DNA from: an uncultured Candidatus Saccharibacteria bacterium
GTDB taxonomy: Bacteria; Patescibacteriota; JABMPQ01; JAQVVF01
Direction: 5' to 3'
DNA length: 64,000 nt
Assembly: GCA_964574655.1 (NCBI GenBank)
Contig: CAZNOH010000001.1
Location: 137,852 to 201,851 of the forward strand
In this document: piece after piece, positions 6,550-54,837 of the stretch
Position numbering within the stretch: position 1 is the first letter of the stretch
Layout: the number at the start of each line of letters is the position of its first letter
The notes under the pieces: model-generated
What the model saw: only the letters and a program-made list of their open reading frames with translations
Databases searched by the model: none
Told to the model about the DNA's origin: nothing
Made by a program: the position numbers and the translations under genes

Positions 6550-9500
6550 ATGTTTAAAAAAGTAGATCCAAAACAAGATTTTATAAAATTAGAGCATGAT
6601 GTTCTTGGTTTTTGGAATGAGAACAGAATGTTTTATAAATTGCAGAATAAAAATCATGGCAAAGAGCCTTGGTCTTTTATTGATGGTCCAATTACAGCAA
6701 ATAATCCAATGGGAGTCCATCATGCGTGGGGCAGAACATTGAAAGATGTTTTTCAGCGTTATAAGGCGATGCAAGGATTTGATCAACGATGGCAAAATGG
6801 TTTTGATTGCCAAGGTCTTTGGGTTGAGGTTGAAGTTGAAAAAGATTTGGGATTTAATTCTAAAAAAGAAATTGAAAAATTCGGTTTGGATAATTTTTCT
6901 AAAGCTTGCAAAGAAAGAATTGAAAAATATTCCGAAATTCAGACTGAACAATCAAAAAGACTGGGACAGTGGATGGATTGGAGAAATTCTTATTATACAT
7001 ATACAGATGATAATATTGAGGCAATCTGGACTTTTTTAGAAAAATGCAAAAGAAATGGCTGGCTATACAAGGGATATTCAGTAATGCCTTGGTGTACAAG
7101 ATGCGGGACTGCTTTGTCTCAACATGAATTATCAGATGATGGCTGGAAAGAAGTTGTTCATCAGGCAGTTTATATTAAATTAAAAAGAAAAAGCGAAGAA
7201 GCTGAAATTAATGAATATTTCTTGGTTTGGACAACAACTCCTTGGACATTGCCAGCAAATGTTGCTTTGGCTGTAAATCCAAAAGTAAAATATGTCAGAG
7301 TAATGAAGGACGGCGAGACCTATATCTTAGCTAAGGCTTTAGTTTCGAAAGTTTTGGGTGAAGCAGAAATTGTAGAGGAAGTTGATGGAAAAAGTCTTTT
7401 GGGTCTGCATTATGAAGGACCTTTTGATGAATTGCCTGCACAAACAGGAGTAGATCACAAAGTAATTTCATGGGAAGATGTTTCTGATGCTGAAGGTACT
7501 GGCATTGTTCATATTGCGCCTGGTTGTGGTGAAGAAGATTATCAGCTTTCTAAAACTAATGATTTGAAAATTATTGCTCCAATTGATGAATTTGGCAACT
7601 ACGTTGATGGTTTCGACTGGTTGAACAAAAAAAATGTTCACGGAATTAAGAATGAGATTTTTTCTTCTTTGAAAGAAAAAGGTAATTTTTTGAAAATTGC
7701 TGATATTAAACATCGCTATCCATTTTGCTGGAGATGCAAAGAAGAATTAGTATTTAGAGCTGTTTCAGAATGGTTTATTGATGTTTCTGAAGTCAGAGAG
7801 CCAATGAGGAAGGCTGCAGAAAAAGTTGGTTGGTTGCCTGAATCAGTTGGCAAGAGAATGCAAGATTGGCTTGATAATATGGGAGATTGGGTAATTTCTC
7901 GAAAAAGATATTGGGGTTTGCCATTGCCTTTTTATGAATGTGAATGCGGTGAAGTAACTGCTGTAGAGTCACGAAAAGAGCTTTTAGAATTATCAAATCA
8001 ACAATCAACAAATTTGATATTAGCAAGGCATGGAAGAAGCGAAGGAAATGTTTTAGGAATTACTGATGGAAAAATGCCAGGAACAAATTTAGATTGGAAA
8101 GGCGAGGAAGAAGCCGATCAATTGGCGAAACAGATGAAAGAAAGAGGAGTTGATATTGTTTATACTTCACCTTTCTCTCGTTGTAAAAAAACAGCTGAAA
8201 AAGTGGCTAAATTATGCAATGCAGAATTAGTTGAAGATGAAAGGTTGAGAGAACAGGCTTTTGGTAATTGGAATGATAAGAAAGTTTTTGAAGTTGAAAA
8301 AGAACTTACTGATTTTTATGAGGAAAATGATGATAAAAAGGCTGGTGAGACAGGTGAAAGTATGAAAGAACTTTTTGCAAGATGTCAGGATTTTTATCAT
8401 GAAATTTTGAAAAAGCATAATGGCCAGACTGTTGTTGTAGTTACTCATGATGGAATTTTGGCAAATCTAGAAAAAGTAATTGTGAATAATAAAAAAGTTA
8501 GAAATGTTATGAAAGTTACAGCTCAAAATGCTAAAGCCCATGAAATTAATATTTTAGGGAATGGCCCCAGCCATGAAGGCGGGGCAAGCAAAATTATTCC
8601 TGAATTACATCGTCCTTGGATTGATGAACTAAAAATCATTTGTCCAAAATGTAAAAAGGAAGTATCGAGAATTAAGGATGTTGGTGATTGTTGGTTGGAT
8701 GCTGGAATCGTGCCTTTTTCAACATTAAAATATTTTAGCAATAAAGAATATTGGGCAAAATGGTTTCCTGCTGAATTTGTTTGTGAAATGCGTTCTCAAG
8801 TAAGATTGTGGTTCTATTCAATGCTTTTTATGGCTGTAACGTTGGAAGATGAGACGCCATATAAACAAGTGCTAGCTTATGAAGAAGTAAGAGATGAAAA
8901 AGGCAAGCCAATGCATAAGTCTTCTGGCAATGCGATCTGGTTTGATGAAGCAGCAGAAAAAATGGGAGCTGATGTGATGAGATGGATGTACTGTGTCCAA
9001 AATCCAGCTTACAACTTAAGATTTGGCTATAGATCCGCAGAAGCAATTAGACGCAAATTAATTTTGTTATGGAACGTTTATTCTTTCTTTGTGTTATATG
9101 CGAACATTGATAATTTTAAGCCTGTTGAAAATAATAAATTAGTACTGAACAATAAACTTGATCAGTGGATTATTTCAGCTTTGAATGCATTGATTGCTGA
9201 ATGCAATAAAGAAATGGATAGATTTAATGCTCAACGCGTAATGGAAAAATGCGAGAAGTTTTTGGATGATTTAGCAAATTGGTATGTAAGAAGATCAAGA
9301 AGGAGATTCTGGAAGAGTGAAAATGATCAGGATAAGAATCAAGCCTATCAAACGTTGTATACTGTTTTGACAAATTTTGTGAAATTAATTGCACCTGTTG
9401 TGCCATTTTTGTCTGAAGAAATGTATCAGAACTTGGAGCGTCAGAGCGTCGGAGCTTCGGAGATCGGAAGCGTCCACTTGTGTGATTATCCGAAGGCTGA

Positions 9501-10092
9501 TGTAAACTTGATTGATGAAAAGTTGAATATGGAGATGGATTTGGTGAGAACAATTGCGAAATTAGGTTTAGCTGCACGTGCAAAAGCACAAATGAAAGCA
9601 CGACAGCCGTTAGCTAAGTTGAAAGTTAAAAGTTTAAAGTTAAAAGTTACGGACGATTTAATTGCTATTTTAAAAGACGAATTAAATGTGAAAGTTATTG
9701 AATTTGTGGAAAAGATTGGTTTTGAGGTTGAAGAAAAGAAAAACAAGAAAAAGTATATTTCTAAAGAAAAAGGCTTTGAAGTTGAAGGTGATGGTAATGT
9801 TGTTATTGCTTTACAGACTGAATTAACTGAAGAACTAGAATTAGAAGGTATGGCTCGTGAAGTTGTCCGACAGATTCAATCAATGCGTAAAGAAGCTGAT
9901 TATCAGATTGCAGACCGTATTAAAGTTTGTTTTGAATTAGGTGAAAAAGGTAAAAAAGTTTGCCATCAGTTTGGTGATTATATTAAAAAAGAAACTTTGG
10001 CAACTGAATTAGAAGAAGGTAAAAAAGAAGTTGATTTGGGCAAAGAGGCGAAATTAGGCAAGGAAGAAGGATGGATTGGAGTGAAGAAATAG
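6550..10092 (+). CDS. ileS: Isoleucyl-tRNA synthetase (type 2, Thermus-like) with a histidine-phosphatase/phosphoglycerate-mutase-like domain of about 170 aa inserted between the two zinc-knuckle Cys pairs (CECG ... CPKC).
   Basis: Motifs seen are WTTTPWTLPAN (CP1 editing), WVISRKRYWGLPLPF, PMHKSSGN (the KMSKS equivalent), and a HIGH region GVHHAWG that aligns to T. thermophilus GLPHVGHA. The insert has LARHGRSEGN (the RHG catalytic motif) ... VVVTHDGIL (the second catalytic His). The likely start is the ATG at 6550 (MFKKVDPKQ); the supplied ORF begins at 6517. Confidence 0.9.
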   Translation: MFKKVDPKQDFIKLEHDVLGFWNENRMFYKLQNKNHGKEPWSFIDGPITANNPMGVHHAWGRTLKDVFQRYKAMQGFDQRWQNGFDCQGLWVEVEVEKDLGFNSKKEIEKFGLDNFSKACKERIEKYSEIQTEQSKRLGQWMDWRNSYYTYTDDNIEAIWTFLEKCKRNGWLYKGYSVMPWCTRCGTALSQHELSDDGWKEVVHQAVYIKLKRKSEEAEINEYFLVWTTTPWTLPANVALAVNPKVKYVRVMKDGETYILAKALVSKVLGEAEIVEEVDGKSLLGLHYEGPFDELPAQTGVDHKVISWEDVSDAEGTGIVHIAPGCGEEDYQLSKTNDLKIIAPIDEFGNYVDGFDWLNKKNVHGIKNEIFSSLKEKGNFLKIADIKHRYPFCWRCKEELVFRAVSEWFIDVSEVREPMRKAAEKVGWLPESVGKRMQDWLDNMGDWVISRKRYWGLPLPFYECECGEVTAVESRKELLELSNQQSTNLILARHGRSEGNVLGITDGKMPGTNLDWKGEEEADQLAKQMKERGVDIVYTSPFSRCKKTAEKVAKLCNAELVEDERLREQAFGNWNDKKVFEVEKELTDFYEENDDKKAGETGESMKELFARCQDFYHEILKKHNGQTVVVVTHDGILANLEKVIVNNKKVRNVMKVTAQNAKAHEINILGNGPSHEGGASKIIPELHRPWIDELKIICPKCKKEVSRIKDVGDCWLDAGIVPFSTLKYFSNKEYWAKWFPAEFVCEMRSQVRLWFYSMLFMAVTLEDETPYKQVLAYEEVRDEKGKPMHKSSGNAIWFDEAAEKMGADVMRWMYCVQNPAYNLRFGYRSAEAIRRKLILLWNVYSFFVLYANIDNFKPVENNKLVLNNKLDQWIISALNALIAECNKEMDRFNAQRVMEKCEKFLDDLANWYVRRSRRRFWKSENDQDKNQAYQTLYTVLTNFVKLIAPVVPFLSEEMYQNLERQSVGASEIGSVHLCDYPKADVNLIDEKLNMEMDLVRTIAKLGLAARAKAQMKARQPLAKLKVKSLKLKVTDDLIAILKDELNVKVIEFVEKIGFEVEEKKNKKKYISKEKGFEVEGDGNVVIALQTELTEELELEGMAREVVRQIQSMRKEADYQIADRIKVCFELGEKGKKVCHQFGDYIKKETLATELEEGKKEVDLGKEAKLGKEEGWIGVKK

Positions 10093-10120
10093 TTGAACAA
10101 ATAGTTTGAACAGAAAAAAG

Positions 10121-10145
10121 ATAGGCGAAAATGCCTATTTTTTTT
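10121..10145 (+). terminator. ileS intrinsic terminator (ATAGGC-gaaaat-GCCTAT + T7).
   Basis: Perfect 6-bp stem followed by a T-run. Confidence 0.65.
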
Positions 10146-10172
10146 GACATTTTGTGTTTAAAAAGGTAAAAT
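10144..10172 (+). promoter_or_regulatory. Canonical sigma70-type promoter: TTGACA, 17-nt spacer, TAAAAT. A strong Shine-Dalgarno sequence AGGAGGAG follows upstream of the 10259 ATG.
   Basis: I read it directly; spacer length counted as 17 nt. Confidence 0.55.
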
Positions 10173-10258
10173 ATTATTATAAAGGTATGGATTGTTCGTT
10201 AAAATTTAATTGACTATCCAATCGATTTCTTTTCATCCCCAAGAACCAGGAGGAGAAG

Positions 10259-12889: not shown

Positions 12890-12912
12890 GCGATTTTATA
12901 TCGCTTTTTTTA
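12889..12912 (+). terminator. Intrinsic terminator (AGCGAT-tttat-ATCGCT + T7).
   Basis: Perfect 6-bp stem followed by a T-run, immediately after the stop codon. Confidence 0.6.
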
Positions 12913-13071
12913 TTTGTAAAATAATGATAAATCAATGCGAACAAATAATTTGAACAGAAAAAGATAGGCAAATATTCGTCTATCTTTTGTTTTGTATTGA
13001 CTTTTTATAGAAATAAGGTAGAGTAATTAGTCTTGGATTTTCAGGATGCCTAGAAGGAGGAGGAGAAGACA

Positions 13072-13503: not shown

Positions 13504-13521
13504 GAAGTTAAAGCAGTTCGG

Positions 13522-13884: not shown

Positions 13885-13885
13885 T

Positions 13886-13912
13886 AACTATCCATATGGA
13901 TAGTTTTTTTAT
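13886..13912 (+). terminator. Intrinsic terminator (20-nt perfect palindrome AACTATCCATATGGATAGTT + T7).
   Basis: I read it directly. Confidence 0.65.
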
Positions 13913-13924
13913 ACCTATGCTATA

Positions 13925-16451: not shown

Positions 16452-16507
16452 ACAAAGATCTGCCTTTGTTTCTCTGCGAGAGACTTTGGCGGACAAGGGA
16501 GGAGAGG

Positions 16508-18111: not shown

Positions 18112-19458
18112 ATGGAAAATTTAATGGATAAAATTGTATCGTTGGCAAAAAGAAGAGGATTTATTTTTCCGTCTTCAGAAATTTATGGCGGTTTTTCTTC
18201 TTGTTATGATTACGGTCCGATTGGAGTTGAATTAAAAAATAATATTAAGATGCAGTGGTGGAAAACTATGGTACATGATCGAGAGGATATAGTAGGTTTG
18301 GATGCCTCAATACTAATGTCACCAAAAGTTTGGTATGCATCTGGTCATTTGTCGGCTGGCTTTGCTGATCCAATGGCAGAATGCAAAAAATGCAACAAGA
18401 GATTTAGAGCTGATCATTTGAAAGAAGAAGCAATAACAAAATGTCCGGAGTGTGGTGGTGAATTGGGCGAGGTGAGAAAATTTAATCTAATGATGAAGAC
18501 TTTTGTTGGGCCATTGGAAAATGAATCAAGCATTGCTTACCTAAGAGCAGAAACTTGCCAAGGGATTTATGTTAATTTTAAAAATGTTTTGGATACCATG
18601 AGACCAAAAATTCCATTTGGTATCGCCCAGATTGGTAAGGCTTTTCGTAATGAAATTACGCCTGGAAATTTTACTTTTAGAATGCGTGAGTTTGAACAAA
18701 TGGAACAGCAGTTTTTTATTAAACCGGGAGAGAACGTAAAATATTTTGAAGAATGGAAAAAAATAAGAATGCAGTGGTATATTGATTTAGGTATAAGTCC
18801 GGAAAAGCTAAAATTTCATGAACATGCAAAAGAAGATTTAGCTCATTATGCTAAAGCTGCTTTTGATATTGAATATGATTTTCCTTTTGATAACAAAGAA
18901 TTAGAAGGCATTCATGATCGAGGGGATTGGGATCTTTCTAACCATGCAAAATCTTCTAAACAAGATCTATCTTATTTTGATACAAAAGAGAACAAAAAAT
19001 TTGTTCCAAATATAATAGAGACTTCAGCCGGTGCAGATCGAGCGGTATTGGCTTTTTTGGTTGATGCTTATTATGAAGAATCCGTTTTCGCTTCTAAAGG
19101 AGCTTCAACGGACAAAGAAAGTAAAGATAATATGAGAGTAGTGTTGAAATTTCATCCAAAAATTGCTCCAATTAAAATTGCTGTTTTGCCTTTGGCTAAA
19201 AATAAAACAGATATTACTGATTTGGCTAAGAAGATATTCAATGGTCTTAAGGCTAGATTTGTTTCAATGTATGATGAATCTGGAAGCATTGGAAAATTAT
19301 ATAGAAGGCAAGATGAAATCGGTACGCCATTTTGTGTGACAATTGATTTTGATAGCTTGGAAGATAAAAAAGTGACAATTAGAGATCGAGATACAATGGA
19401 ACAAGAAAGAGTGGAAATTGATGGATTGAAAGATTATTTTGAAAAGAAATTAGACTGA
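18112..19458 (+). CDS. glyQS: Glycyl-tRNA synthetase (class II, dimeric GlyQS type).
   Basis: 448 aa; N-terminal KRRGFIFPSSEIYGGFSSCYDYGPIGVELKNN plus the class II core and C-terminal anticodon-binding region. Confidence 0.9.
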   Translation: MENLMDKIVSLAKRRGFIFPSSEIYGGFSSCYDYGPIGVELKNNIKMQWWKTMVHDREDIVGLDASILMSPKVWYASGHLSAGFADPMAECKKCNKRFRADHLKEEAITKCPECGGELGEVRKFNLMMKTFVGPLENESSIAYLRAETCQGIYVNFKNVLDTMRPKIPFGIAQIGKAFRNEITPGNFTFRMREFEQMEQQFFIKPGENVKYFEEWKKIRMQWYIDLGISPEKLKFHEHAKEDLAHYAKAAFDIEYDFPFDNKELEGIHDRGDWDLSNHAKSSKQDLSYFDTKENKKFVPNIIETSAGADRAVLAFLVDAYYEESVFASKGASTDKESKDNMRVVLKFHPKIAPIKIAVLPLAKNKTDITDLAKKIFNGLKARFVSMYDESGSIGKLYRRQDEIGTPFCVTIDFDSLEDKKVTIRDRDTMEQERVEIDGLKDYFEKKLD

Positions 19459-19533
19459 GTTAGAAAGTTTAAAGTTATCCGCCTTCGTCCTGCTGGACTT
19501 TGGCGGACAGGTAAAGTTTATAAAGTATCTAAG

Positions 19534-19557: not shown

Positions 19558-19645
19558 TTAGACATTAATTATTATTTTTAGTATAATTTGTGTATATTCG
19601 CCTACGTCCTGTGGGACTTTGGCGGACAAAGTAATTTTAAAATAT

Positions 19646-23052: not shown

Positions 23053-23130
23053 TGTCATTCCGAGCGAAGCGAGGAATCCCGTGGTTTTTTGTTAAATTCA
23101 TGGGATCCCTCACTGCTGTTCGGGATGACA
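23053..23130. repeat. Long imperfect inverted repeat (about 28-nt arms) TGTCATTCCGAGCGAAGCGAGGAATCCC ... GGGATCCCTCACTGCTGTTCGGGATGACA, with a 21-nt spacer containing a T-run, between the AI-2E gene and rsmI.
   Basis: I read it directly; the arms are reverse complements with a few mismatches. Confidence 0.5.
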
Positions 23131-27663: not shown

Positions 27664-30600
27664 ATGAAATATGACTTTAAGAAAATTGAACGCAAGTGGC
27701 AGTTAAAATGGGATAAGGAAAAGCTTTATCAAGTTGATGTAAAAAATTCTGCAAAGCCTTTTTATAATTTGATGATGTTTCCATACCCATCAGCAGAAGG
27801 TTTGCATGTTGGAAATATGTATGCTTTTACTGGTTCTGATATTTATGGAAGGTATCAAAGATTAAAAGGTAATGATGTTTTTGAGCCAATTGGTTTGGAT
27901 GGTTTTGGTATTCATTCAGAAAATTTTGCAATTAAAAATAAGATTCATCCAGCAAAAATGGCTTTAAAAACGCAAAAAAGATTTTATGAACAATTGCACA
28001 TGATTGGAAATGCGTATGACTGGCCAAAAACTTTAGAAACTTATGATCCAGAATATTATAAATGGACGCAATGGCTATTTTTGCAAATGTACAAAAAAGG
28101 ATTGGCTTATAAAAAGAAGGCAGCGGTGAATTGGTGTCCTTCATGTATGACTGTTTTGTCTGATGAACAAGTTATAAAAAAGTCAAAAGTCAAAAGTCAA
28201 AAGTCAAAAGTTCAAGTAAAAAATCAAAAGGAATCGAACGAACAAATCGATGTTTGCGAACGTTGTGGGACAGAAGTTATCAAGAAAGAAATGAGCCAAT
28301 GGTTTTTTAAGATTACTGATTATGCTGAAAAATTATTAAAGAATATTGATAAAATAGATTGGACAGAAAAGACAAAATTAGCGCAAAAAAATTGGATTGG
28401 AAGAAGCGAAGGCATAGAAATTAATTATCTAATAAACAGTAAATGCAATTTTGTTTTGCTACATGGCTATACTGGTAGTTCGAAGGATGATTTTTTTCCT
28501 TGGCTAAAAGAAAAATTAGAAAAGCAAGGATGTGACGTTTTTGCGCCAGATTTGCCGAATACAAAAGATCCAAATGAAGATGAGCAGGTTGATTTTGTTT
28601 TAAAAAATGCAAAGTTTGATGAAAATACTATTTTGCTAGGTCATTCATTAGGTGCTGTTGTTGCAATGAAAGTTATGGAAAAATTAGATAATAAAATTGC
28701 GGGTTTGGTTTTGGTTGGTGGTTTTGTCGAGCCAGAATTTAAAGATCATTCAAGATCTTTTACTGATAAATTCAATTGGAAATTTGATTTCGTGAAGATA
28801 AAAAATAGTGCAGATATCATAAATGTTATTAGTGATATAAATGATCATATCATTCCTTTAGAACAAGGTAAGTTATTGAGAGATAAATTGAGTGCAAATT
28901 TGACTGAAACTGTTGCTGAAAAAAATCATTTCAACAATGTCGAAGCCAAAAGTGTTTGGGAAAGTATCTTTCCTGAAATTAAAGTTTTTACAACTAGACC
29001 TGATACAAATTTTGGAGCAACATTTGTTGTTTTGACGCCCGAAAATAAAATCTTAAGCTCTATAACAACTAGTGATCATAAAAGAGAAGTTGATGATTAT
29101 GTTAAAAAATCATTAGAAAAAGGTGAACAAAACAGAATTGAAGAGGGACGAGAAAAAACAGGAGTTTCTACTGGAGCTTATTGTATTAATAGTTTGACAG
29201 GAAAGAAAATGCCGATTTGGGTGTCTGATTTTGTTTTGGGAAATGTAGGTACCGGTGCAGTGGTTGGAGTGCCAGGTCATGATATCAGAGATTTTGAGTT
29301 TGCTAAGAAATTTGAATTGCCAATTATTCGAGTTGTTGTTGGCAAAGATAATGATGTTTCTGAAATTATAGAAGCAAAACAAGTGCAAGAAGAAGAGGGA
29401 AAAATGATTAATTCTGATTTTTTGAATGGTTTAGATATTCATGACGCGACTAAAAAAATTATGGATTATTTGGAAGAGAAAGGCTGGGGTAAAAAAGTTG
29501 TGAATTACAAATTACGTGATTGGTGTATTTCTAGACAAAGATTTTGGGGACCGCCAATTCCAATTGTTTATTGTGATAATTGCAAAAAAAACATTGAAGA
29601 AAAATCTTTTGAATTAAGATTTCGTGATAAAAATAGTTTTGCTGATTTAAAAAGTGGTTTAAAGACAGTTGAATCAAGAGCTTTAAATCCAGAAGAAAAA
29701 GACAGATATTTTGGAAATTTGAAAATTGGTGATTATATTAAGGCTTTGTCAAAGATAACCGGAGAAAAATTATATTTTGAAATTACGAAGATTTATAATT
29801 TTAAAAATCTTAATGAATTATTTGAAGAAAAAGAATTATTGACAAAGATATTGCCGAACAAAACAATTAATTCAGTAAATGATTTAGAAAAATTATATGT
29901 TTTTAATGATGAATATTTGGCAAAAATAAATGAGAATGGTTTAATTGCTTGGGAAATTAAAAATGTTGAGCCTGGAGTTTTAGCTGTTCCTGAAAAAGAT
30001 TTGCCAGTGATGTTGCCAAAGACTGATGATTACTTGCCTGACGGAACTGATCGATCTCCTCTTGCTCGAAATTCCGAATTTGTTAATACAAAATGTCCAA
30101 AGTGTGGAGGAGATGCAAAAAGAGAAACTGATGTGTCAGATACATTTTTGGATTCATCTTGGTATTTTTTGAGATATCCAAGTGTTGATATAAAAGATCA
30201 GCCTTTTGATAAAGATATTACAAAAAAATGGTTGCCAGTTGATATGTATATTGGCGGACATGAACATGCTGTACTTCATTTGCTTTATACAAGATTTGTA
30301 ACAATGGTTTTGCATGATTTAGGGATGATAGATTTTGAAGAGCCTTTTAAAAAATTCAGAGCGCATGGTTTGATTATTAAAGATGGTGCAAAGATGTCAA
30401 AATCAAAAGGCAATGTTGTAAATCCAGATATATATATTGAGAGATATGGTGCTGATGTATTGAGAACATATTTAATGTTTATTGGGCCGTTGAAGCAAGG
30501 TGGTGATTTTCGAGATGAGGGAGTGGTTGGTATAGAAAGGTTTTTTGGTCGCTTATATTATTTAGTTAACGAATTTATAAAGAGTCCCAGCCTAAAGGCT

Positions 30601-31116
30601 GGGCTACAAGATGGATTTGTAATTGAGAGAAATAAACTGATTAAAAAGGCAACTCATGATATTGAGGAATTGGATTATAATACGATCATTGCTTCTTTGA
30701 TGGAATTTTTGAATTTGTTAGATAAAAATAAAGAGAAAGTTGCAAAAATTGATTTGGAAACGTTAATTATTATTTTGTCTTCTTTTGCGCCTCATTTTTG
30801 TGAAGAAATGTGGTCCACCTTCGCCTCAGTTCCTTCGGCTACGGCGGATAAAAGAGATTTGGATAAATATAAGCAATCAGTTTTTAGGCAGAAATGGCCG
30901 GAATTTGATGAAAGTAAAATGAAAGAAGAAAAAGTAAAATTAATTATTCAGGTAAATGGCAAAGTGAGAGATTTCGTGGAAGTCGAGATCGATATCTCTG
31001 AAAGTAAGGCGAGTGAATTAGTACAAAAACGAGAAAAAATTATGAAATTTATTGTTGGAAAAAAGATCAAGAAAATGATATTTGTAAAAGGCAGATTGAT
31101 AAATATCGTGTTATAA
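27664..31116 (+). CDS. leuS: Leucyl-tRNA synthetase with two inserted domains. An RBBP9/YdeN-type serine hydrolase (about 190 aa; LLHGYTGSS...GHSLG...DHI) sits at the CP1 entry between NWIGRSEG and TTRPDT. An ASCH-like domain (about 130 aa; GLKTVESR, i.e. GxKxxExR) sits at the leucyl-specific-domain position. The HIGH motif reads HVGN.
   Basis: PYPSAEGLHVGN, NWIGRSEGIEINY...VFTTRPDTNFGATFVVL, KMSKSKGN. It is 1150 aa against about 860 for E. coli LeuRS. There is a heptanucleotide repeat (AAAAGTC)x4 at 28186-28220. GC-rich hairpin elements lie in frame at 30586-30603 and 30814-30854. Confidence 0.9.
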   Translation: MKYDFKKIERKWQLKWDKEKLYQVDVKNSAKPFYNLMMFPYPSAEGLHVGNMYAFTGSDIYGRYQRLKGNDVFEPIGLDGFGIHSENFAIKNKIHPAKMALKTQKRFYEQLHMIGNAYDWPKTLETYDPEYYKWTQWLFLQMYKKGLAYKKKAAVNWCPSCMTVLSDEQVIKKSKVKSQKSKVQVKNQKESNEQIDVCERCGTEVIKKEMSQWFFKITDYAEKLLKNIDKIDWTEKTKLAQKNWIGRSEGIEINYLINSKCNFVLLHGYTGSSKDDFFPWLKEKLEKQGCDVFAPDLPNTKDPNEDEQVDFVLKNAKFDENTILLGHSLGAVVAMKVMEKLDNKIAGLVLVGGFVEPEFKDHSRSFTDKFNWKFDFVKIKNSADIINVISDINDHIIPLEQGKLLRDKLSANLTETVAEKNHFNNVEAKSVWESIFPEIKVFTTRPDTNFGATFVVLTPENKILSSITTSDHKREVDDYVKKSLEKGEQNRIEEGREKTGVSTGAYCINSLTGKKMPIWVSDFVLGNVGTGAVVGVPGHDIRDFEFAKKFELPIIRVVVGKDNDVSEIIEAKQVQEEEGKMINSDFLNGLDIHDATKKIMDYLEEKGWGKKVVNYKLRDWCISRQRFWGPPIPIVYCDNCKKNIEEKSFELRFRDKNSFADLKSGLKTVESRALNPEEKDRYFGNLKIGDYIKALSKITGEKLYFEITKIYNFKNLNELFEEKELLTKILPNKTINSVNDLEKLYVFNDEYLAKINENGLIAWEIKNVEPGVLAVPEKDLPVMLPKTDDYLPDGTDRSPLARNSEFVNTKCPKCGGDAKRETDVSDTFLDSSWYFLRYPSVDIKDQPFDKDITKKWLPVDMYIGGHEHAVLHLLYTRFVTMVLHDLGMIDFEEPFKKFRAHGLIIKDGAKMSKSKGNVVNPDIYIERYGADVLRTYLMFIGPLKQGGDFRDEGVVGIERFFGRLYYLVNEFIKSPSLKAGLQDGFVIERNKLIKKATHDIEELDYNTIIASLMEFLNLLDKNKEKVAKIDLETLIIILSSFAPHFCEEMWSTFASVPSATADKRDLDKYKQSVFRQKWPEFDESKMKEEKVKLIIQVNGKVRDFVEVEIDISESKASELVQKREKIMKFIVGKKIKKMIFVKGRLINIVL

Positions 31117-31196
31117 CACACTAATGTGACGCTAATAACACTAATTAACACTAATAAAAAATCCGCCTTCGTTCTGCTGAACTTCGGCGGACAAAG

Positions 31197-32848: not shown

Positions 32849-32966
32849 AGTTCTTAAAGCCTGCCTGCCGGTAGGCAGGTTATAAAGTAAAAAAGATATT
32901 AAGATATTGTACTTTGAAAATTGAACCTGTCTGAGTTTGGACAGGCAAGAAAAGGAGGAGACGGGA

Positions 32967-33806: not shown

Positions 33807-33959
33807 CCAGTTTTTATAACTGGTTTTTTTATGTCTTGAAGTTGTCTTTAAAATATATTAAAATAATATAACTAGTAGTTTAATTTTATTACTTTTCCAC
33901 CCTACGTCTGCCTGCCGGTAGGCAGGGGTGGTCACCCGAAGGGTGATAACTTTTAACTT

Positions 33960-41560: not shown

Positions 41561-41620
41561 ATATTCGGAAATTAAGATATTAAATATTATCCACCTTCGC
41601 TAAAGCTTCGGTGGACAAAG

Positions 41621-41650: not shown

Positions 41651-41747
41651 TTAGATTTAAGTTAGAATATAATGCCGAAGGAGGGAGTCGCCCTGCCATG
41701 AAGGCAGGGTTGCTCATTTCGTTCGCAAAACCTAATTTTTTTGATCA

Positions 41748-41830
41748 TGCCGCGGGAGGGAGTTGAACCCTCATGAGCCGAAGCTCACACGATTTTGAGT
41801 CGTGATTGTATGCCATTCCAACACCGCGGC
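41748..41830 (-). tRNA. tRNA-Leu (anticodon CAA), class II with a long variable arm (TGAGC-TTCG-GCTCA); no encoded CCA.
   Basis: I folded it by hand. The acceptor is GCCGCGG/CCGCGGC + A, the D-arm is TTG...CAA, the anticodon stem is CACGA/TCGTG with loop CTCAAAA, and the T-arm is GAGGG-TTCAACT-CCCTC. Confidence 0.8.
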
Positions 41831-48112: not shown

Positions 48113-48205
48113 AAGTTTAAAAAGTAAAAAGTTAAAATTAAAAAGTAAAAAATATTTTTAATTGCATAATTTAAACAATAACGTTTTTTAAATTATTGTC
48201 AAATT

Positions 48206-49297: not shown

Positions 49298-49416
49298 ATA
49301 GTTTACAAAATCGATAATTTACTTTACAGTAACAAAAAAGATGATTATAGACAAACTGTTGACAAAAATTAGAAAATAAATTATACTGCTGAGTAATTAA
49401 ATTTAATTTTATTTTT

Positions 49417-50148: not shown

Positions 50149-53100
50149 GCAAAAAATTGTAAACTTTGTTTTAAAGAATTTTTCCAGTCTGGTCCTAGAT
50201 CAGACTGGTTTATTTTTATTTCAGTATCTTCAATATCCCATTGAGGATTTTTTTTGATTAATTCGTAAGCTTTTTGATAATTTGTTTGTCTTTGAAAATT
50301 AATAACAAAACGGTTATAGTTTTTGCCATCTGGCTGATTGATTTGTTTTGTTTTAATAAATTTTATTTTTGCTTTTTGGGCGATGATTTTAAGTTCCAAA
50401 ATATAAAACAGGTTATCAATGTATGATTTTTCTCTAATACCATCTCTAATAATACTAATGTGATCTCGAATATTGTTAATGAGGTTTTGTTCGTATTCTT
50501 GAAGTTCATTAATGTTTTCAATGTTGGCAATTTGTTGATATAATTTTAAACGTTTTTCAAAGTTTGGGAATATTTTTTCAGGAAGATATGCAGATAATGG
50601 TAAATCAAGAGTTGGCGATATTTTTTCTTCTATTGTTTTTTCTTGTCCTGATTTTAGATTTTGGATTGCTTGATTTAAAAGTCGGCAATATAAATTTAAG
50701 CCAATTGTTGTGACAGCGCCTGATTGTTCTTTTCCTAAAATATTTCCAGCACCTCTAATTTCGAGATCTCTAAGCGCTAATTGAAATCCTGAGCCAAGTT
50801 CTTTTGCTTCAAGTAATGCTTCTAGTCTTCTTCTGGCTTTTTCTTTTAATTCAGTGCTTTTGTATAAGAAATAAGCATAGGCTTGTTTAGTGCTTCTGCC
50901 AACTCTGCCTTTTAGTTGATATAAATCAGCGAGGCCGAAGTTCACAGCATTATCAATTATAATAGTATTAACATTTGGAACATCAAGGCCATTTTCAATG
51001 ATTGAAGAAGCGACCAAGATATCAATTTTTTTGTCGTAAAATTCGGACATTATCTTTTCAAGATTGTTTTCTGGCATTTGTCCATGAGCAAAAGCAACTG
51101 AAACTGGCTTATTGTATTTTTTTAATAAGTTTTTAATTTTTTGAGTTGTAGCTTGGATAGTTTGAACTTTGTTATGAAGAAAATATATTTGGCCATTGCG
51201 ATCTAATTCTTTTTTAAAAGCATTCATAATAATTTCTTCTGAATATGGTTTGATAAAATTGGCTACTGATTGGCGGCCTGGAGGAGGAGTGTTGATGATA
51301 CTAATATCTCTTAATCCTGACAATGACAAGTTCAATGTTCTTGGGATAGGAGTTGCTGATAATGCTAAAATGTCGATATTGGCTTTTAATTTCTTTATTG
51401 TTTCTTTATGTTTGACGCCAAATCTTTGTTCTTCGTCTAAAATGAGGAGGCCTAAATCTTTAAATTTGATATCATCAGATAATAGTCGATGAGTGCCGAT
51501 TACAATATTTATTTGGCCTAAGGATAATTTTTTTAAAATGTCTTGTTGCTGTATTTTTGATTGAAAACGAGAAATAACAGCAATCTTTAAATCGAAATTT
51601 TCTAGTCGGTTTTTAAAATTATCAAAATGTTGTTTAGCAAGAATTGTTGTTGGACAAAGAATGGCAACTTGTTTTTTGTCTTGAGTGGCTTTGAAGGCAG
51701 CTCTCAATGCAATTTCTGTTTTGCCAAAACCAACATCGCCACAGATCAGGCGATCCATTGGTTTCTTCAATTTTTTCTTTTCCATATCAATTTTTACTTC
51801 TGCTATAACTTTCAATTGATCAGGAGTTTCTTGATAGGGAAAGCTATCTTCTAATTCTTTTTGTTTTTCTGTGTCAGTTGAAAAAGCAAAGCCAAGTGAT
51901 TTTTCGCGGTTGGCGTAAATTTTTAGAAGATCTTTTGCAATAATTTCAGTTTTCTTTTTAATTTTACTTTTTAATTCTAGCCATGAGGCTGTATGAAGAT
52001 GGTTGATTTTTGGGTGTGATTGACCGATATATTTTGTTATTTTTTCAGAATATTCAACTGGCAAGAAAAGCTTATCATTGTTAGCATATTCTAAAATCAG
52101 ATATTCTTTTTTATTATTATCAATAATCTTTTTTGTTGTTCCTTTAAATAAACAGATACCATGATCCTCATGGACTAAAAAGTCATTGATTTTTAATTCC
52201 GAAATAAAAGCCTCATTAATGCTTTTTTTGTTTTCTGTTCTTTCTTGAATTATTTCATTGTCAGTTAAAAGCAATAATTTATGTTGATTGCTCTTGAAGC
52301 CAGAAATATTTTTTGAATATTCTTTTTTTTCAAAAATGATTTTTGAGAAATTAATATCTAGATTGGCAAATATTTTTTTAATTGCTTTTTCATCTTGGGT
52401 AAAAATAATTATTTTAAAATCTTGGTATTTTTGTAACTCTTTTTTTAATGCCAATAAATTGTTGGCGTAATTTGATATTGATAAAAAGTCTAGGTCAATT
52501 GTTTTTTCTTCTGGAAAAGATTGAATAATAATCTGTGTAAACTCGCTAATTGATTTTTCGAAGTGTTGATATGGTTTGTAAGAAAAAGGATCAATTGATT
52601 CTTTTAAGCTTTCTGGATCATTGATGATCATTAATGCTTGCTTTGGCAACACTAAATAATCAGATAATTTTCCATTGCTGTCATTGGTTTTAATCGGAGG
52701 AATGAGAATGTTATTAATACTTTTTAATGCTTTTTTATTTTTGGGATCAAAGATCTGAATATTCTCAATTTTGTTGCCAATGAATTCCAAGCGAACAGGA
52801 TATTTTTTGTTGATTGGAAAAATTTCAATTAAACCGCCTTTTTTTGAGAAGAGTCCTTTTGCTACTGCATTAGTTTCTCGTTCGTATCCTTGAGAAGCAA
52901 ATTGTTGAGACAAGTCATTTGGGTCAATATTTTCATTTTTCGAAGCTGTAGAAAAATTTTTTTCAAAATTACTTATTTTCGGACATGAACTATTAATGTG
53001 TTCAATGGGAATAATATAAAATCCAGGTTTGTTTTCAGAAATATCAGATAAGAAATTTTGCTTTTTTATAAAGCTCTGCCTTATTTTTTCATTTTCTAAA

Positions 53101-53354
53101 TTCAATGATTTTTCTTCAATTGGCTTAAATATTTTGATTATGATATTTTTATTTTGCCAATTTCTGAGATTTGAATATGTTGATAGGGCAGTATCATGGT
53201 TTTTTACGAAATAAAAAATCGGCTGATCCAATTTTTCTGGGGGTATCAGCTTGGTAATAATGAATGGCTTTGCTTGTTCACAAATGCCGGTAAGAATCGT
53301 CTTTTTGCTTCGCAGGGGTTCAAGATTTTGAACCCCTGCCTGTTGTTCTAGCAT
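50145..53354 (-). CDS. mfd: Transcription-repair coupling factor Mfd.
   Basis: UvrB-homology N-terminus plus the superfamily 2 helicase core GDVGFGKTEIALRAA, DEEQRFGV and the TRG motif. Confidence 0.9.
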   Translation of the reverse strand: MLEQQAGVQNLEPLRSKKTILTGICEQAKPFIITKLIPPEKLDQPIFYFVKNHDTALSTYSNLRNWQNKNIIIKIFKPIEEKSLNLENEKIRQSFIKKQNFLSDISENKPGFYIIPIEHINSSCPKISNFEKNFSTASKNENIDPNDLSQQFASQGYERETNAVAKGLFSKKGGLIEIFPINKKYPVRLEFIGNKIENIQIFDPKNKKALKSINNILIPPIKTNDSNGKLSDYLVLPKQALMIINDPESLKESIDPFSYKPYQHFEKSISEFTQIIIQSFPEEKTIDLDFLSISNYANNLLALKKELQKYQDFKIIIFTQDEKAIKKIFANLDINFSKIIFEKKEYSKNISGFKSNQHKLLLLTDNEIIQERTENKKSINEAFISELKINDFLVHEDHGICLFKGTTKKIIDNNKKEYLILEYANNDKLFLPVEYSEKITKYIGQSHPKINHLHTASWLELKSKIKKKTEIIAKDLLKIYANREKSLGFAFSTDTEKQKELEDSFPYQETPDQLKVIAEVKIDMEKKKLKKPMDRLICGDVGFGKTEIALRAAFKATQDKKQVAILCPTTILAKQHFDNFKNRLENFDLKIAVISRFQSKIQQQDILKKLSLGQINIVIGTHRLLSDDIKFKDLGLLILDEEQRFGVKHKETIKKLKANIDILALSATPIPRTLNLSLSGLRDISIINTPPPGRQSVANFIKPYSEEIIMNAFKKELDRNGQIYFLHNKVQTIQATTQKIKNLLKKYNKPVSVAFAHGQMPENNLEKIMSEFYDKKIDILVASSIIENGLDVPNVNTIIIDNAVNFGLADLYQLKGRVGRSTKQAYAYFLYKSTELKEKARRRLEALLEAKELGSGFQLALRDLEIRGAGNILGKEQSGAVTTIGLNLYCRLLNQAIQNLKSGQEKTIEEKISPTLDLPLSAYLPEKIFPNFEKRLKLYQQIANIENINELQEYEQNLINNIRDHISIIRDGIREKSYIDNLFYILELKIIAQKAKIKFIKTKQINQPDGKNYNRFVINFQRQTNYQKAYELIKKNPQWDIEDTEIKINQSDLGPDWKNSLKQSLQFFA

Positions 53355-53484
53355 GGGCAGATGATAACATTTTTTTTGATGTAAGGCAAGGTTTCAAGCA
53401 AACAAAAAAATGTTTTTTGTTTCAATTTTGTTATTAGTAAATCTTGACAATATTTTTTGCTTTGATAAGATGTTATGAAAATGT

Positions 53485-53600
53485 TTTTTTCATTTTTCTG
53501 TCTGCGAGTAGCCAAAGCAAAACTATCCCTCCTTAAGTTTTGTGAGTAGCTATAAATTAAGCTTTTGCTTAGGCTCGCAGACAGGAAAATGGGAAGAATA
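53485..53600 (+). ncRNA. Candidate small structured RNA: a long imperfect hairpin of about 100 nt (outer stem TTTTCTGTCTGCGAG / CTCGCAGACAGGAAAA with nested CCAAAGCAAAA / TTTTGCTTAGG and CAAAACT / AGTTTTG), with CCCTCC in an internal loop. It is downstream of a promoter-like TTGACA-N17-TAAGAT (53446-53474) and upstream of a second promoter (TTGACT-N17-TATGTT, 53636-53664) for the 53704 gene.
   Basis: I found the inverted-repeat structure by hand; there is no ORF. Confidence 0.3.
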
Positions 53601-53703
53601 TGAAAAAAATCACCTAATGTGGTTTTTTATTTAGGCTTGACTTTTTTTAATTATCTGTTATGTTGGTGTTAGTACTTTCCACGAGGAGAAAAGGAGGAGA
53701 GAG

Positions 53704-54246
53704 ATGAGTCTAGCTTTGGACATGGGAACAACTCCAATTGGTTTGGAAGCAAAAACTCGTTTTTTATCTTTTGGATTTTTACAACTTGGTGATTATACGA
53801 TTAATTTGGAAGATTGTATGATTTTGATTCAGTTTGTACTTCGGCAAGCTTTTTTGCTAGAGACAAAATTGACATGGAGGTTTTGGAAGTATTTCCGAAA
53901 TCTTAGGATTTGGAAAGGATATTCTGAGACAATGCGTTGTAAAAAAATTTGTACTCATAGAATTCATTCAGAGGGTAGTTCTTTATGTCAGCTTGTAGGT
54001 GCTGTTGAAGATTGGTCCGTATCTGTCGAAAGCGGTGTTTTGCAGAGAGAGCTTGTTCCTAGGAAGATTTCAGTAGCAATTTCTTTTGGAGGAATAAGAA
54101 TTGGTGATTATAATCTTTCTAATGCTGATTTTTTGTGCTTAATGGATTATGTTTTGACAAATGAGAATTTGGCTAAGAGTGATCTTAGAAGAAGATTCAT
54201 GAAGAATGTAAGGCGTTGGAAGTGTTTTGAAAGATATGTTCGTTGA
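53704..54246 (+). CDS. Hypothetical protein built from an internal tandem duplication of an about 50-aa unit (SFGxxxxGDYxxxxxDxxxLxxxVL...RRF...R.WK.F), preceded by the Shine-Dalgarno sequence AAAAGGAGGAGAGAG.
   Basis: The two repeat units are visible in the translation. A terminator follows at 54245-54275 (GAGACTGA-ttgctt-GTCAGTCT + T7). Confidence 0.45.
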   Translation: MSLALDMGTTPIGLEAKTRFLSFGFLQLGDYTINLEDCMILIQFVLRQAFLLETKLTWRFWKYFRNLRIWKGYSETMRCKKICTHRIHSEGSSLCQLVGAVEDWSVSVESGVLQRELVPRKISVAISFGGIRIGDYNLSNADFLCLMDYVLTNENLAKSDLRRRFMKNVRRWKCFERYVR

Positions 54247-54291
54247 GACTGATTGCTTGTCAGTCTTTTTTTTATTTTGTTTTAAATTTAC

Positions 54292-54837
54292 CTACGTCCT
54301 GCGGGATTCTGGCGGACAAACAATTTCTTTTATGACTTGATCAATGCTTTTGTTGATAATGTCTTGTTCTTCTTTTGAGAAATTTCCAAGAACATAATTG
54401 GCAGTATCTGCAATTTGTTCTTTTGGCAAATTCAAAATGCCAATTCGGAAGCGATTAATTTCATTTGTATTTAAGCTTTGAATAATTGATTGCATGCCAT
54501 TGTGTCCACCAGCGGATTGGCCAGAAGTTCTAATTTCGCCAAGTTGCAAATCAATGTCGTCGTAAATTATTGTTAAATCTTTTTTAGGATCAATTTTGTA
54601 AAACGAAATAAGGGCTTGAACTGCAAGGCCTGACTTATTCATGAAAGTTTGCGGTTTGGCAAATATCGTTTTTTCGTTGTTAATATTTGTTTGGCTAATT
54701 TCAGCGTTAAATTTTTTTTCCAAACTAAAATTTAAATTTAGCTTTTTTGTTAAAGCATCGAGTGTCATAAAGCCGACATTGTGGCGAGTGTTTCGATATT
54801 TCTCGCCAGGATTGCCTAGTCCGATTATAATTTTCAT
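54292..54837 (-). CDS. pth: Peptidyl-tRNA hydrolase.
   Basis: MKIIIGLGNPGEKYRNTRHNVGF. The last about 9 codons are encoded by a GC-rich hairpin element (54290-54321). Confidence 0.85.
   Translation of the reverse strand: MKIIIGLGNPGEKYRNTRHNVGFMTLDALTKKLNLNFSLEKKFNAEISQTNINNEKTIFAKPQTFMNKSGLAVQALISFYKIDPKKDLTIIYDDIDLQLGEIRTSGQSAGGHNGMQSIIQSLNTNEINRFRIGILNLPKEQIADTANYVLGNFSKEEQDIINKSIDQVIKEIVCPPESRRT

Follow-up and report, generated by a model that had tools for sequence, protein, structure and literature searches.

The window, the whole stretch of DNA analyzed here, covers 64 kb out of a 654-kb Patescibacteria (CPR) genome with 32% GC. It contains about 13 copies of a single GC-rich hairpin family, every one on the + strand. 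Most of the window genes are also on this strand, which is the leading strand as judged by GC skew, and the uniform orientation of the copies is therefore confounded. The copies, the related hairpins, and the ileS repeat described below are all given on the + strand.

Motif scanning and folding revealed a two-stem fold common to every copy. The elements are 25-45 nt long (about 30 bases) and have the layout TCCGCC-TTC-G[variable hairpin]C-TTY-GGCGGA-CAAG, with the consensus ends (N)TCCGCC... and ...GGCGGACA(A/G)G. Specifically, a GC-rich outer stem of 6 bp, usually TCCGCC/GGCGGA, is joined through a 3x3 pyrimidine internal loop (TTC/TTY) to an inner hairpin that is free in both sequence and length, and the element ends in a CA(A/G)G tail (CTTG on the opposite strand). 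CCTACGTC occurs internally in just three variant copies, 19597, 54291, and 33897. A covariance model, R1, scoring the outer stem, the TTC/TTY 3x3 loop, the inner hairpin, and the CA(A/G)G tail, gave 11 matches in the window at E < 0.4, exclusively on the + strand. In the stems 98% of cells were paired, double changes occurred in 6 of the 8 pairs, and double-change cells numbered 29 as against 3.1 in shuffles, all counted in an alignment that was fitted to the model and drawn from a collection search with a fixed 3' arm. Such compensatory changes fit RNA function and maintenance of a palindrome at the DNA level alike and do not separate the two. No Rfam family matched the elements of the window at gathering score, and there was no relevant match at E ≤ 10 or E ≤ 1 for the copies in the window and in sequences L042 and L023. 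A description of the family was not found in the literature.

Hairpins within genes

At least five genes, three tRNA synthetase genes among them, hold what sequence comparison identifies as recent in-frame hairpin insertions. A first-pass annotation had listed five GC-rich segments in leuS, ileS, and pth as hairpins inserted in frame, and all five were found, with their encoded peptides, where it placed them. The insertions in glyS and in a P-type ATPase gene were missing from that list. The difference in base composition that the annotation had named as a check is present, the in-gene segments having 56-75% GC as compared with 31-35% for the host genes; 36-nt windows with 55% GC or more make up only 1% of the total.

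The leuS copy (30814..30852; TCCACCTTCGCCTCAGTTCCTTCGGCTACGGCGGATAAA), with the layout TCCACC-TTC-GCC..GGC-TAC-GGCGGA-TAAAAG, encodes STFASVPSATADK in frame. Its membership of the family, as first proposed, is upheld by the shared architecture, by a model R1 match at 30812-30855 (13.9 bits, E 0.12 over the window), and by a clean indel of 39-42 nt, net +42 nt (14 codons), relative to the closest relatives. DNA alignment of the three closest genomes (L001, L003, and L004) showed an empty site in each, and the segment is missing from 59 of 59 aligned homologues, including the five closest LeuRS proteins. The insert has 56% GC in a gene of 31% GC. In the AF2 model it falls in a lower-confidence loop that follows helix 184-195, with a pLDDT of 66-77 as against >90 in the flanks. 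The loop, which follows EEMW, is hypervariable across 60 homologues and carries insertions in many CPR lineages, those of other lineages being different palindromes. A second leuS hairpin that had been assigned to the family, CCCAGCC-TAAA-GGCTGGG (30586..30603), is real, with a perfect 7-bp stem (-15.2 kcal/mol, z -2.6), but we rejected it as a family member: it has no second occurrence in the window and no model R1 match at E ≤ 10. It is located in a hypervariable linker to which L004 is partly homologous with similar length, two others being 15-21 nt shorter. Elsewhere in leuS, a local tandem repeat at 28178-28230 is another lineage-specific in-frame addition.

The hairpin insert of ileS (8564..8587; GCCCCAGCCATGAAGGCGGGGCAA) encodes PSHEGGAS and is of a different type. 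As an insertion it proved firmer than the annotation, which rated it weak, had supposed; it is a clean 24-nt in-frame indel, missing in relatives of 88%, 86%, and 70% identity, with empty sites in L005 (88%) and L007 (70%). As a member of the main family it failed, giving no model R1 match at E ≤ 10, and it belongs to a different small family. The hairpin folds at -15.8 kcal/mol and sits at the C-terminal boundary (linker) of an inserted His_Phos_1 domain. Within the window it shares GCCATGAAGGC only with its relative CCCTGCC-ATGAA-GGCAGGG (41691..41709), which adjoins a tRNA 3' remnant, and a collection scan with the motif of the insert found no enrichment of complementary stems (11/120 versus 7.5 expected). 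The second ileS segment (9435..9474) consists of five 8-nt tandem units of GGAGCGTC. Its loop is of ancestral length in all IleRS, its sequence is common to the 88% relative, and model R1 did not match it at E ≤ 10. It was rejected as an inserted hairpin element.

The glycyl-tRNA synthetase gene glyS (18112-19458) carries a family copy (19081..19117), TCCGTT-TTC-GCTTCTAAAGGAGC-TTC-AACGGA-CAAAG, inserted in frame (net +36 nt) and encoding SVFASKGASTDK between the catalytic and anticodon-binding domains. Model R1 matched it at 19079-19119 (26 bits, E 7e-5), its outer stem showing two compensatory changes (CC/GG to TT/AA). The site is empty in L001, L003, L004, and L007; L001 carries TCCGTT there, which could be a loss footprint instead of an empty site. 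In the N-terminal region of the P-type ATPase gene (2995-5244), a copy at 3211..3240 (CCCTCCTTTGCTTCTGCTACGGAGGGCAGG; model R1 at 3209-3243, 12.1 bits, E 0.37) encodes PSFASATEGR in frame. This is a clean 30-nt indel immediately 5' of a pre-existing CAAG, and 19 relatives with 64-71% identity lack the 10-residue insertion.

The pth gene is on the minus strand (54292-54837). At its 3' end a + orientation copy (54284..54317), downstream of the convergent gene 53704-54246, is a 34-nt insertion that replaces the ancestral stop, so that pth gains 8 codons (CPPESRRT) and ends at a TAG within the element arm, the element supplying the gene end as first read. Relatives end directly after ..EEIV, and the segment is missing from ten Pth proteins. 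The copy is close in sequence to the intergenic copy 19597. Model R1, which recognizes the leuS, glyS, and ATPase copies, matched it only weakly (54295-54323, 7.5 bits, E 6.4). Taken alone, the model E-values of the leuS and ATPase copies are weak as well.

Among the segments first listed, orthologue alignments thus indicate lineage-specific insertions at leuS 30814, pth, and ileS 8564, and ancestral sequence at ileS 9436. Empty sites at leuS, pth, and ileS, and also at the unlisted glyS and ATPase copies, sustain the proposed RPE-like in-frame insertion of dispersed palindromes into coding genes. The term "domestication" was not borne out; there was no sign that the encoded peptides have gained function.

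Copies between genes and in other organisms

Three intergenic copies are located between a stop codon and a terminator hairpin, downstream of leuS (31162..31196; 39.6 bits with model R1), glyS (19478..19512; 32 bits), and glyA (SHMT) (41590..41620; 51.7 bits). The leuS-associated copy is present in the window and, with a different inner stem, in L001 and is absent from L003 and L004. The glyS-associated copy is absent from L001, L003, and L004. The glyA-associated copy is absent from L001 and L003, where the empty site already has ACAAAAAA at the junction. Like an intrinsic (Rho-independent) terminator, the element is a GC-rich hairpin downstream of stop codons, but it has no T-run, its tail being CAAAG plus an A-run, and this assignment was rejected. 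At all three sites the true terminator, a second hairpin that is conserved and has a T-run, is found just downstream.

A further copy (16459..16498; model R1 17.2 bits) lies 8 nt past the stop of a tgt-like gene, abutting the ribosome-binding site of the next gene, and is absent from L006 and L007. The copy at 19597..19631 (model R1 16 bits) lies in the 5' untranslated region of a GGDEF gene, with a TATAAT-like box before it and the start codon after it, and has the exact boundaries TATA^[TCCGCC..GGCGGACAAG]^TAATTTT; it has an orthologue in L004 and is absent from L001 and L003. A nested pair (5256..5312) follows the ATPase stop and precedes the next ribosome-binding site. The outer copy, TCCGCCTTTGTTAAAGCT..TCGGCGGAC, holds within its 3' internal loop (CT^TCGG) an inner copy (5274-5303), TCCACC..GGTGGACAAG, that scored 52.9 bits with model R1. 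The nesting point is identical in L076, L077, and L087, which come from other phyla. Two family-like hairpins of uncertain membership fall in a T-box leader (RF00230 match at 5839-6062), one in Stem I (5867..5894; model R1 13.1 bits) and the other, ACCGCC..GGCGGT, at the Stem III position (5988..6026; 13.3 bits).

Intergenic copies thus vary by presence and absence among relatives. An initial motif scan counted 7 clean copies in the part of the window that corresponds to the fetched loci of three related genomes, which themselves had 1, 0, and 0. The covariance model adds two copies in L004 (1764-1802 and 14568-14608). Each related genome has only 0-2 copies over the ~23-43 kb of syntenic sequence fetched.

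Copies of this element whose stems carry compensatory changes were detected in Bradyrhizobium, Acidobacteriota, Bacteroidota, Verrucomicrobiota, Planctomycetota, other CPR, and viral contigs. A collection search with the model gave 107 matches in 100 sources, and the positions left free by the search pattern are T/C/C at 71-82%. From phylum to phylum the stems co-vary, whereas the sequence of the internal loop and the CAAG tail stay conserved. In other organisms in-frame copies occur in LeuRS, ArgRS, ATPase, ABC ATPase, and glycosyltransferase genes, and both orientations relative to genes are seen, with antisense copies inside ArgRS and a glycosyltransferase. Judged by sequence, the window copies are part of a much wider family in many bacterial phyla and viral contigs. 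The shared motif indicates that the element is not confined to its host lineage.

Origin of the copies

The copies probably represent a small non-autonomous hairpin repeat, REP/RPE-like, whose numbers have risen recently in this lineage of Patescibacteria; we infer mobility from presence and absence alone. Copying and insertion, both at the DNA level, would be the work of an enzyme acting in trans and encoded outside the window, most plausibly one that uses single-stranded hairpin DNA, like the HUH/Y1 transposases (RAYT, IS200/IS605). The tested ORFs of the 64-kb window gave no Pfam match to a transposase, HUH enzyme, RAYT, or nuclease. Insertion would occur anywhere, with selection sparing only copies at harmless sites, namely stop-to-terminator gaps, untranslated leaders, and genes in which the net gain in length is divisible by three. 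Tolerated sites within genes would be surface loops or domain linkers, where a GC-rich sequence lacking stop codons in the frames used would aid survival. The encoded peptides (S-x-F-A-S...A-D-K and similar) would be by-products.

It is unlikely, though compatible with mobility since the two are not mutually exclusive, that the hairpin is primarily a functional RNA module, serving as a 3' stabilizer that keeps exonucleases off, as a processing site, or as the target of a conserved binding protein. Selection would then keep it in untranslated regions, and the in-gene copies would be rare spill-over or would slow ribosomes at domain boundaries. Most intergenic copies are indeed sense and lie between stop and terminator or shortly ahead of a ribosome-binding site, every in-gene window copy is at a domain boundary or linker, the loop and tail are conserved across phyla over co-varying stems, and REPs stabilize upstream mRNA (PMC3733652). 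However, orthologous sites in close relatives manage without the element, copies nest in one another, both orientations occur in other genomes, including the antisense copies in ArgRS and a glycosyltransferase, and there is no Rfam family.

The in-gene segments could also be of local origin, from replication slippage or template switching that made or perfected palindromes, and resemble the family only through convergence on GC-rich hairpins. In favor of this are the tandem repeats at ileS 9435-9474 and leuS 28178-28230, the uniqueness of the leuS 30586 hairpin, and the fact that the ileS 8564 hairpin has a single relative. Against it, the leuS, glyS, and ATPase inserts share the full architecture, including both TTC/TAC loops and the tail, and read the element in the same frame (S/P-x-F-A-S), and the same element stands in frame within unrelated genes of other phyla; we regard this explanation as very improbable. 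Scarcely credible is an ancestral or functionally selected peptide to which the nucleotide hairpin is incidental. The ileS 9436 loop does have its ancestral length, and many CPR lineages do carry insertions in the LeuRS loop after EEMW. Yet the segments are missing in the five closest LeuRS, three IleRS, ten Pth, four GlyRS genomes, and 19 ATPases, and the insertions of other lineages in the LeuRS loop are different palindromes.

Comparison with known hairpin repeats

MITEs are 70-300 bp long, with terminal inverted repeats of 15-30 bp and a target-site duplication. This class was rejected for elements of 25-45 nt in which no consistent target-site duplication was found at seven resolved junctions. 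The GC clusters of yeast mitochondrial DNA are short, mobile, strain-polymorphic GC-rich palindromes in a very AT-rich genome, with in-frame copies in the protein gene var1. They resemble the window family in spreading as short GC-rich palindromes through AT-rich DNA and in their in-frame gene copies, but they belong to a eukaryotic organelle and follow other sequence and target rules, and no relation is implied.

The Rickettsia palindromic elements RPE-1 to RPE-10, reportedly described by Ogata and co-workers in 2000, are to our knowledge confined to Rickettsia; RPE-1 measures ~100-150 bp. The window family resembles them in being palindromic repeats of a reduced AT-rich genome, placed between genes and in frame within intact genes, including those of translation and repair, with the encoded peptides in permissive regions. 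Indeed, in-frame palindromes with clean indels were found in five genes that remain open. The motif of the window family, however, occurs in many phyla, and at 24-45 nt the family is much shorter than RPE-1; comparison by description allows analogy, at best, with the short RPE-4/6 class. RPEs are also summarized in PMC3733652, where RPE-4 and RPE-6 are CGTC-tagged; the window family is not.

The REP/BIME/REPIN elements are GTAG- and CGTC-tagged palindromes with RAYT transposases (Di Nocera et al. 2013, PMC3733652). The window family agrees with REPs in size and position, being a multi-copy GC-rich imperfect palindrome of 20-40 nt, mostly extragenic, downstream of genes, and transcribed, with a conserved tetranucleotide beside the stem and copy numbers that differ among relatives. 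REPs within genes, and REP termini that provide stop codons, are on record (PMC3733652); here too some copies lie within genes, and pth takes its stop from one. The tag, however, is CA(A/G)G, not GTAG or CGTC, and the conserved 3x3 TTC/TTY loop and free inner hairpin set the family apart. There is no RAYT among the tested window ORFs, whereas REP genomes typically have a RAYT flanked by repeats, and REP families are usually lineage-specific, in contrast to the one sequence type found here over many phyla. The Bradyrhizobium "GTAG-14 loops with CCGC/GCGG termini" (PMC3733652) may be the present element nested in a REP.

Architecture of the hairpin family

Homologues place the source organism in the Patescibacteria (CPR). 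Scanning of the window, which has a GC content of 32%, for GC-rich hairpins and GC-rich islands identified a family of about 13 short hairpins. The outer stem is 6 bp long, mostly TCCGCC/GGCGGA, and encloses a 3 × 3 internal loop with TTC on the 5′ side and TTY (at times TAC) on the 3′ side. The inner hairpin begins with G and ends with C, with no further constraint on its sequence or length, and the element finishes in a CAAAG, CAAG, or CAGG tail. Every window copy had the same two-stem architecture as judged by RNA folding. The stems vary by compensatory changes, with outer stems including TCCACC/GGTGGA, ACCGCC/GGCGGT, CCCTCC/GGAGGG, and TCCGTT/AACGGA and inner stems including GTCC/GGAC and GTTC/GAAC. 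A search of the window with the family covariance model R1, run with filters off, gave 11 matches at E < 0.4, every one on the + strand; the copy in pth had an E-value of 6.4. Rfam, searched at gathering and at E-value thresholds with the window and with copies from other phyla, contained no family for the hairpin.

Further hairpins were observed in the window. The sequence CCTGCCTGCCGGTAGGCAGG is present at 32860-32879 and at 33897-33931, where a surrounding CCACCC..GGGTGG stem and TAC loop resemble the main family. A Verrucomicrobia contig (L042, 5436-5481) carries a family copy in which the inner hairpin CCTGCCTGCCGGTAGGCAGG is nested. Between two genes at 23053-23130 there is a long imperfect inverted repeat, GTCATTCCGAGCGAAGCGAGGAATCCC ... 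GGGATCCCTCACTGCTGTTCGGGATGAC, with a DNA folding energy of -17.4 kcal/mol (z -5.4), which looks like another hairpin-repeat family. A T-box leader (RF00230) was detected at 5839-6062 (+) with 45.5 bits (gathering score 93) and an E-value of 5e-9, its 3′ end lying about 470 nt before ileS, which starts at 6550. Family-like GC-rich hairpins take up the position of Stem III (5988-6026) and, in part, that of Stem I (5867-5894) in this leader. Hairpins of this kind lower the scores of real RNA families, here the T-box.

Hairpins within coding sequence

The first-pass annotation had proposed five in-frame hairpins within long ORFs, namely two in leuS (LeuRS, 27664-31116), two in ileS (IleRS, 6517-10092), and one in pth (Pth, 54292-54837, - strand). 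All five sequences and their encoded peptides are as it described, and comparison with relatives separated the cases. At leuS 30814 the five closest LeuRS proteins (80-83% identity) read W-ETLGNKE-SVF where the window protein reads W-STFASVPSATADKRDLDKYKQ-SVF. The DNA site is unbroken in three syntenic genomes and is 42 bases longer in the window; this is an in-frame inserted family copy. The proposal that an element supplies the 3′ end of pth was likewise borne out. The proteins of the closest relatives finish at ..EEIV, and in the window a 34-nt insertion over the ancestral stop extends the ORF by 8 codons, to a TAG within the arm of the element.

The hairpin at ileS 8563 is an insertion but not a member of the main family. 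Exactly eight residues, PSHEGGAS, are missing in relatives of 88, 86, and 70% identity, and the DNA has a 24-nt gap in the two of these three relatives that were read as DNA. The hairpin has no TTC loops and no R1 match, and the window contains just one relative of it, CCCTGCC-ATGAA-GGCAGGG at 41691. When viral contigs were scanned for the ileS-type hairpin CCNNGCCATGAAGGCNNGG, complementary stems were seen in 11 of 120 cases against 7.5 expected, which gives no sign of a wider family. The hairpin at 41691 has a setting of its own: a tRNA gene found here in the related genome L003 has a 3′ end that is matched by ATGCCGAAGGAGGGAGTCG at 41665-41720, and in the window the hairpin follows this sequence in place of the remainder of the tRNA. 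An intact tRNA-Leu(CAA) at 41748-41830 adjoins this remnant.

The hairpin at leuS 30586 folds well but is not a member of the family. It is unique in the window and lies in a linker whose length differs in every homologue; in one relative the sequence is homologous in part, and two others are shorter there by 15-21 nt. The segment at ileS 9436, which the annotation itself had rated weak, does not represent an inserted element. Loop length is constant across all IleRS proteins, the sequence is shared with the 88% relative, and the segment consists of five copies of an 8-nt unit in tandem.

Two cases were absent from the earlier list. An R1 match in glyS at 19079-19119 (26 bits, E 7e-5) coincides with 36 nt that are missing in four related genomes; its stem, TCCGTT/AACGGA, carries two compensatory GC-to-AT changes. 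In L001, the closest relative, the site contains TCCGTT, which may be the footprint of a loss. The second, an R1 match at 3209-3243, lies within a P-type ATPase, where 19 metagenome relatives (64-71% identity) read HDMSKMSH-QDHE and the window protein reads HDMSKMSH-PSFASATEGR-QDHE. The insert is a clean 30-nt indel immediately before a pre-existing CAAG. Relative to the element, translation uses one frame in the leuS, glyS, and ATPase copies, giving (S/P)-x-F-A-S..., and the insert-encoded peptides in the window genes are STFASVPSATADK, SVFASKGASTDK, PSFASATEGR, PSHEGGAS, and the Pth tail. In-frame insertion of hairpins in genes is real and was under-counted, with five events in the window instead of three to five of which two were doubtful. 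In L326, an ATPase relative, a separate in-frame insert resembling the element, CCCTCCGTCGCTAAAGCTATGGAGGGCAGACC, encodes PSVAKAMEGRP elsewhere in the N-terminal region.

The positions of the segments in the proteins were examined with an AlphaFold2 model of LeuRS residues 860-1150 (mean pLDDT 82) and by domain architecture. The 30814 insert covers the end of helix 184-195 and the following loop, with a pLDDT of 66-77 against >90 around it, and the 30586 segment forms the loop between helices 92-114 and 127-142. The IleRS insert is the linker after an inserted histidine-phosphatase domain (His_Phos_1, residues 500-683), the GlyRS insert falls between the catalytic and anticodon-binding parts, and the ATPase insert is within a His/Met-rich N-terminal region. 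Every insert is an outlier in composition. The LeuRS loop at 30814 is a recurrent landing site.

The synthetases contain other insertions as well. The His_Phos_1 insert is shared by the closest relatives and one Peregrinibacteria protein and is missing from most IleRS proteins. In the window LeuRS an alpha/beta-hydrolase is inserted at residues 258-435 or, by another delimitation, 264-435, and a second insert of ~115 residues without domain assignment is at 641-767. LeuRS proteins with 80-85% core identity (the window protein and its homologues P0002, P0004, and P0005) have differing whole-domain inserts at differing sites; P0002 has a hydrolase at the second insert site of the window protein, P0005 has a NUDIX domain within the editing domain, and P0004 is without any. 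In the zinc-binding region, a 7-nt tandem repeat (AAAAGTC × 7.7, 28178-28230) encodes a 23-residue Lys/Ser/Gln-rich lineage-specific insert missing in three close relatives. P0031, a CPR LeuRS (L293, 3001-6510), has a different, longer in-frame palindrome at the exact 30814 loop, encoding TQINADKKTADKRGYIRANPRSNSRTSALR, and a TCCGCC-AGCC-GGCGGA hairpin near its N-terminus; peptides resembling TQINADKKTADKRGYIRANPRSNSRTSALR are present in P0017, P0020, and P0050.

Occurrence in other phyla

One-genome-per-species contigs were scanned with the pattern GCCTTCG-N4-30-CTTYGGCGGACA, which gave at least 120 loci, including some clearly random matches, as expected by chance in GC-rich genomes. Among the matches listed, the pattern-free positions just upstream are T in 71%, C in 82%, and C in 80%, completing the outer stem; the second base after the match is G in 71%; and the free inner segment is self-complementary in many different sequences. 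R1 gave at least 107 matches in 100 sources. Most collection matches are non-random on account of these family-like free positions, the self-complementary inner segment, and the R1 matches. In the model alignment 98% of cells are paired, and double changes occur at six of eight pairs. Such cells number 29, compared with 3.1 in shuffles and a far lower count in slid controls, for an alignment that was fitted to the model and a search pattern with a fixed 3′ arm.

The taxonomic spread of the family is unexpectedly broad. Carriers among isolates are several Bradyrhizobium species and Niastella populi. Metagenome-assembled carriers belong to the Acidobacteriota, Verrucomicrobiota, Planctomycetota, Elusimicrobia, Armatimonadetes, Nitrospirae, Bdellovibrionales, Bacteroidota, and Gammaproteobacteria. 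Other CPR carriers are Saccharibacteria and Andersenbacteria. About 20 of 43 matches in viral contigs count as carriers. Self-nesting at CT^TCGG recurs in contigs of Acidobacteriota (L077), Planctomycetota (L076), and Methylomirabilota (L087). In low-GC carriers the copies are mostly intergenic, and five lie in frame inside long ORFs; the in-frame hosts are LeuRS (two copies), a P-type ATPase, and an ABC ATPase, with ArgRS and a glycosyltransferase in antisense. The genic or intergenic call by open frames was dropped for GC-rich genomes, where long spurious frames leave it without meaning. A consensus BLAST against plasmids gave four partial matches, none with useful annotation. Seven Bradyrhizobium loci (L047, L065, L082, L101, L103, L105, and L113) have a constant longer context, TGGATTGCTTCC..element..AAGTCGCTnCGCTCG, as if a Bradyrhizobium REP carried the element nested within its loop; this arrangement may be the "CCGC/GCGG-type loops" described for GTAG-14 repeats (PMC3733652).

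A tentative reading, which we hold to be possible and somewhat short of probable, is that the window copies belong to one undescribed pan-bacterial, ~30-nt "CAAG-tailed" family that nests in itself at CT^TCGG and places the same peptide in essential proteins. The family would have the form tCCGCC-UUC-G..C-UUC-GGCGGA-CAAG and might range from Patescibacteria to phage-like contigs through Bradyrhizobium, Acidobacteriota, Bacteroidota, Verrucomicrobiota, and Planctomycetota. Its peptide would be ~10 residues long (SAFAKASADK and variants) and would occur in LeuRS, ArgRS, GlyRS, and P-type ATPases. If this were true, a very widespread mobilizing or recognizing machinery would be implied.

Probable mobility and relation to known repeats

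The intergenic copies differ in presence among relatives: that after leuS is shared with L001 alone, that at 19597 with L004 alone, and the remaining copies compared are private to the window. A first motif scan yielded 7 copies in the matching part of the window and 1, 0, and 0 clean ones in the fetched loci of three related genomes; the covariance model added two copies in L004. At 5256-5312 one copy is nested in the 3′ internal loop of another, at CT^TCGG. In 4-5 of the 7 resolved junctions, a small sample, (A)CAA(A/G) is already present in the empty site at the point where the element tail ends. This hints at target preference or microhomology, and we rate the signal as weak given the abundance of A-runs in the genome.

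Downstream of leuS, glyS, and glyA, the copy follows the stop codon and precedes a distinct terminator hairpin, which relatives conserve. These copies are therefore not terminators; the missing T-run also rules out an intrinsic terminator identity. A MITE identity is ruled out by the wrong size and the lack of target duplication. A possible role of the hairpin as RNA in untranslated regions is compatible with mobility. The data are consistent with a mobile palindrome of the REP/RPE type on which selection acts as a filter, and we infer its putative mobility from presence and absence, nesting, and lineage-specific expansion in the compared sequences. No transposase-like ORF was found among the ORFs of the 64-kb window. 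The mobile palindrome would move as a single-stranded hairpin, by a mechanism of the HUH/Y1 type. This type is favored because the hairpin has a conserved flanking tetranucleotide, because all window copies share one leading-strand orientation (+, as GC skew is positive along the whole window), an orientation confounded with gene direction, and because REPs are thought to move in this way (PMC3733652). The conservation of one 30-nt hairpin across phyla, together with its self-nesting at a fixed point, would point to a very widespread enzyme or binding factor, for which the element could be used as bait.

Five events in 64 kb suggest that such hairpins are a major source of lineage-specific protein insertions in tiny CPR genomes, and their precise filled and empty sites make this a concrete, testable repeat family. 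The hairpins also produce spurious small ORFs and move gene ends, as in pth, and annotation pipelines would benefit from recognizing them.

No description of the motif was found in Rfam or in the searchable literature, which comprised the text of papers open without subscription. It is not present in the text or supplements of the REP paper PMC3733652. Full-text queries with the element sequence and with its peptides turned up no relevant match, and those for Patescibacteria/CPR palindromes and aminoacyl-tRNA synthetase insertions returned general REP and RPE papers only. Palindromes in frame within genes are known from the Rickettsia RPEs and from GTAG/CGTC REPs of several species (PMC3733652). 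The stop codon of pth inside the element is akin to REP termini that provide stop codons (PMC3733652). Unlike the GTAG/CGTC REPs, the window family was negative in the tag test, and it is far smaller than RPE-1 and MITEs. The analogy to Rickettsia RPEs drawn in the first-pass annotation is apt, and the finding extends the RPE phenomenon of selfish palindromes surviving in essential genes to the Candidate Phyla Radiation.
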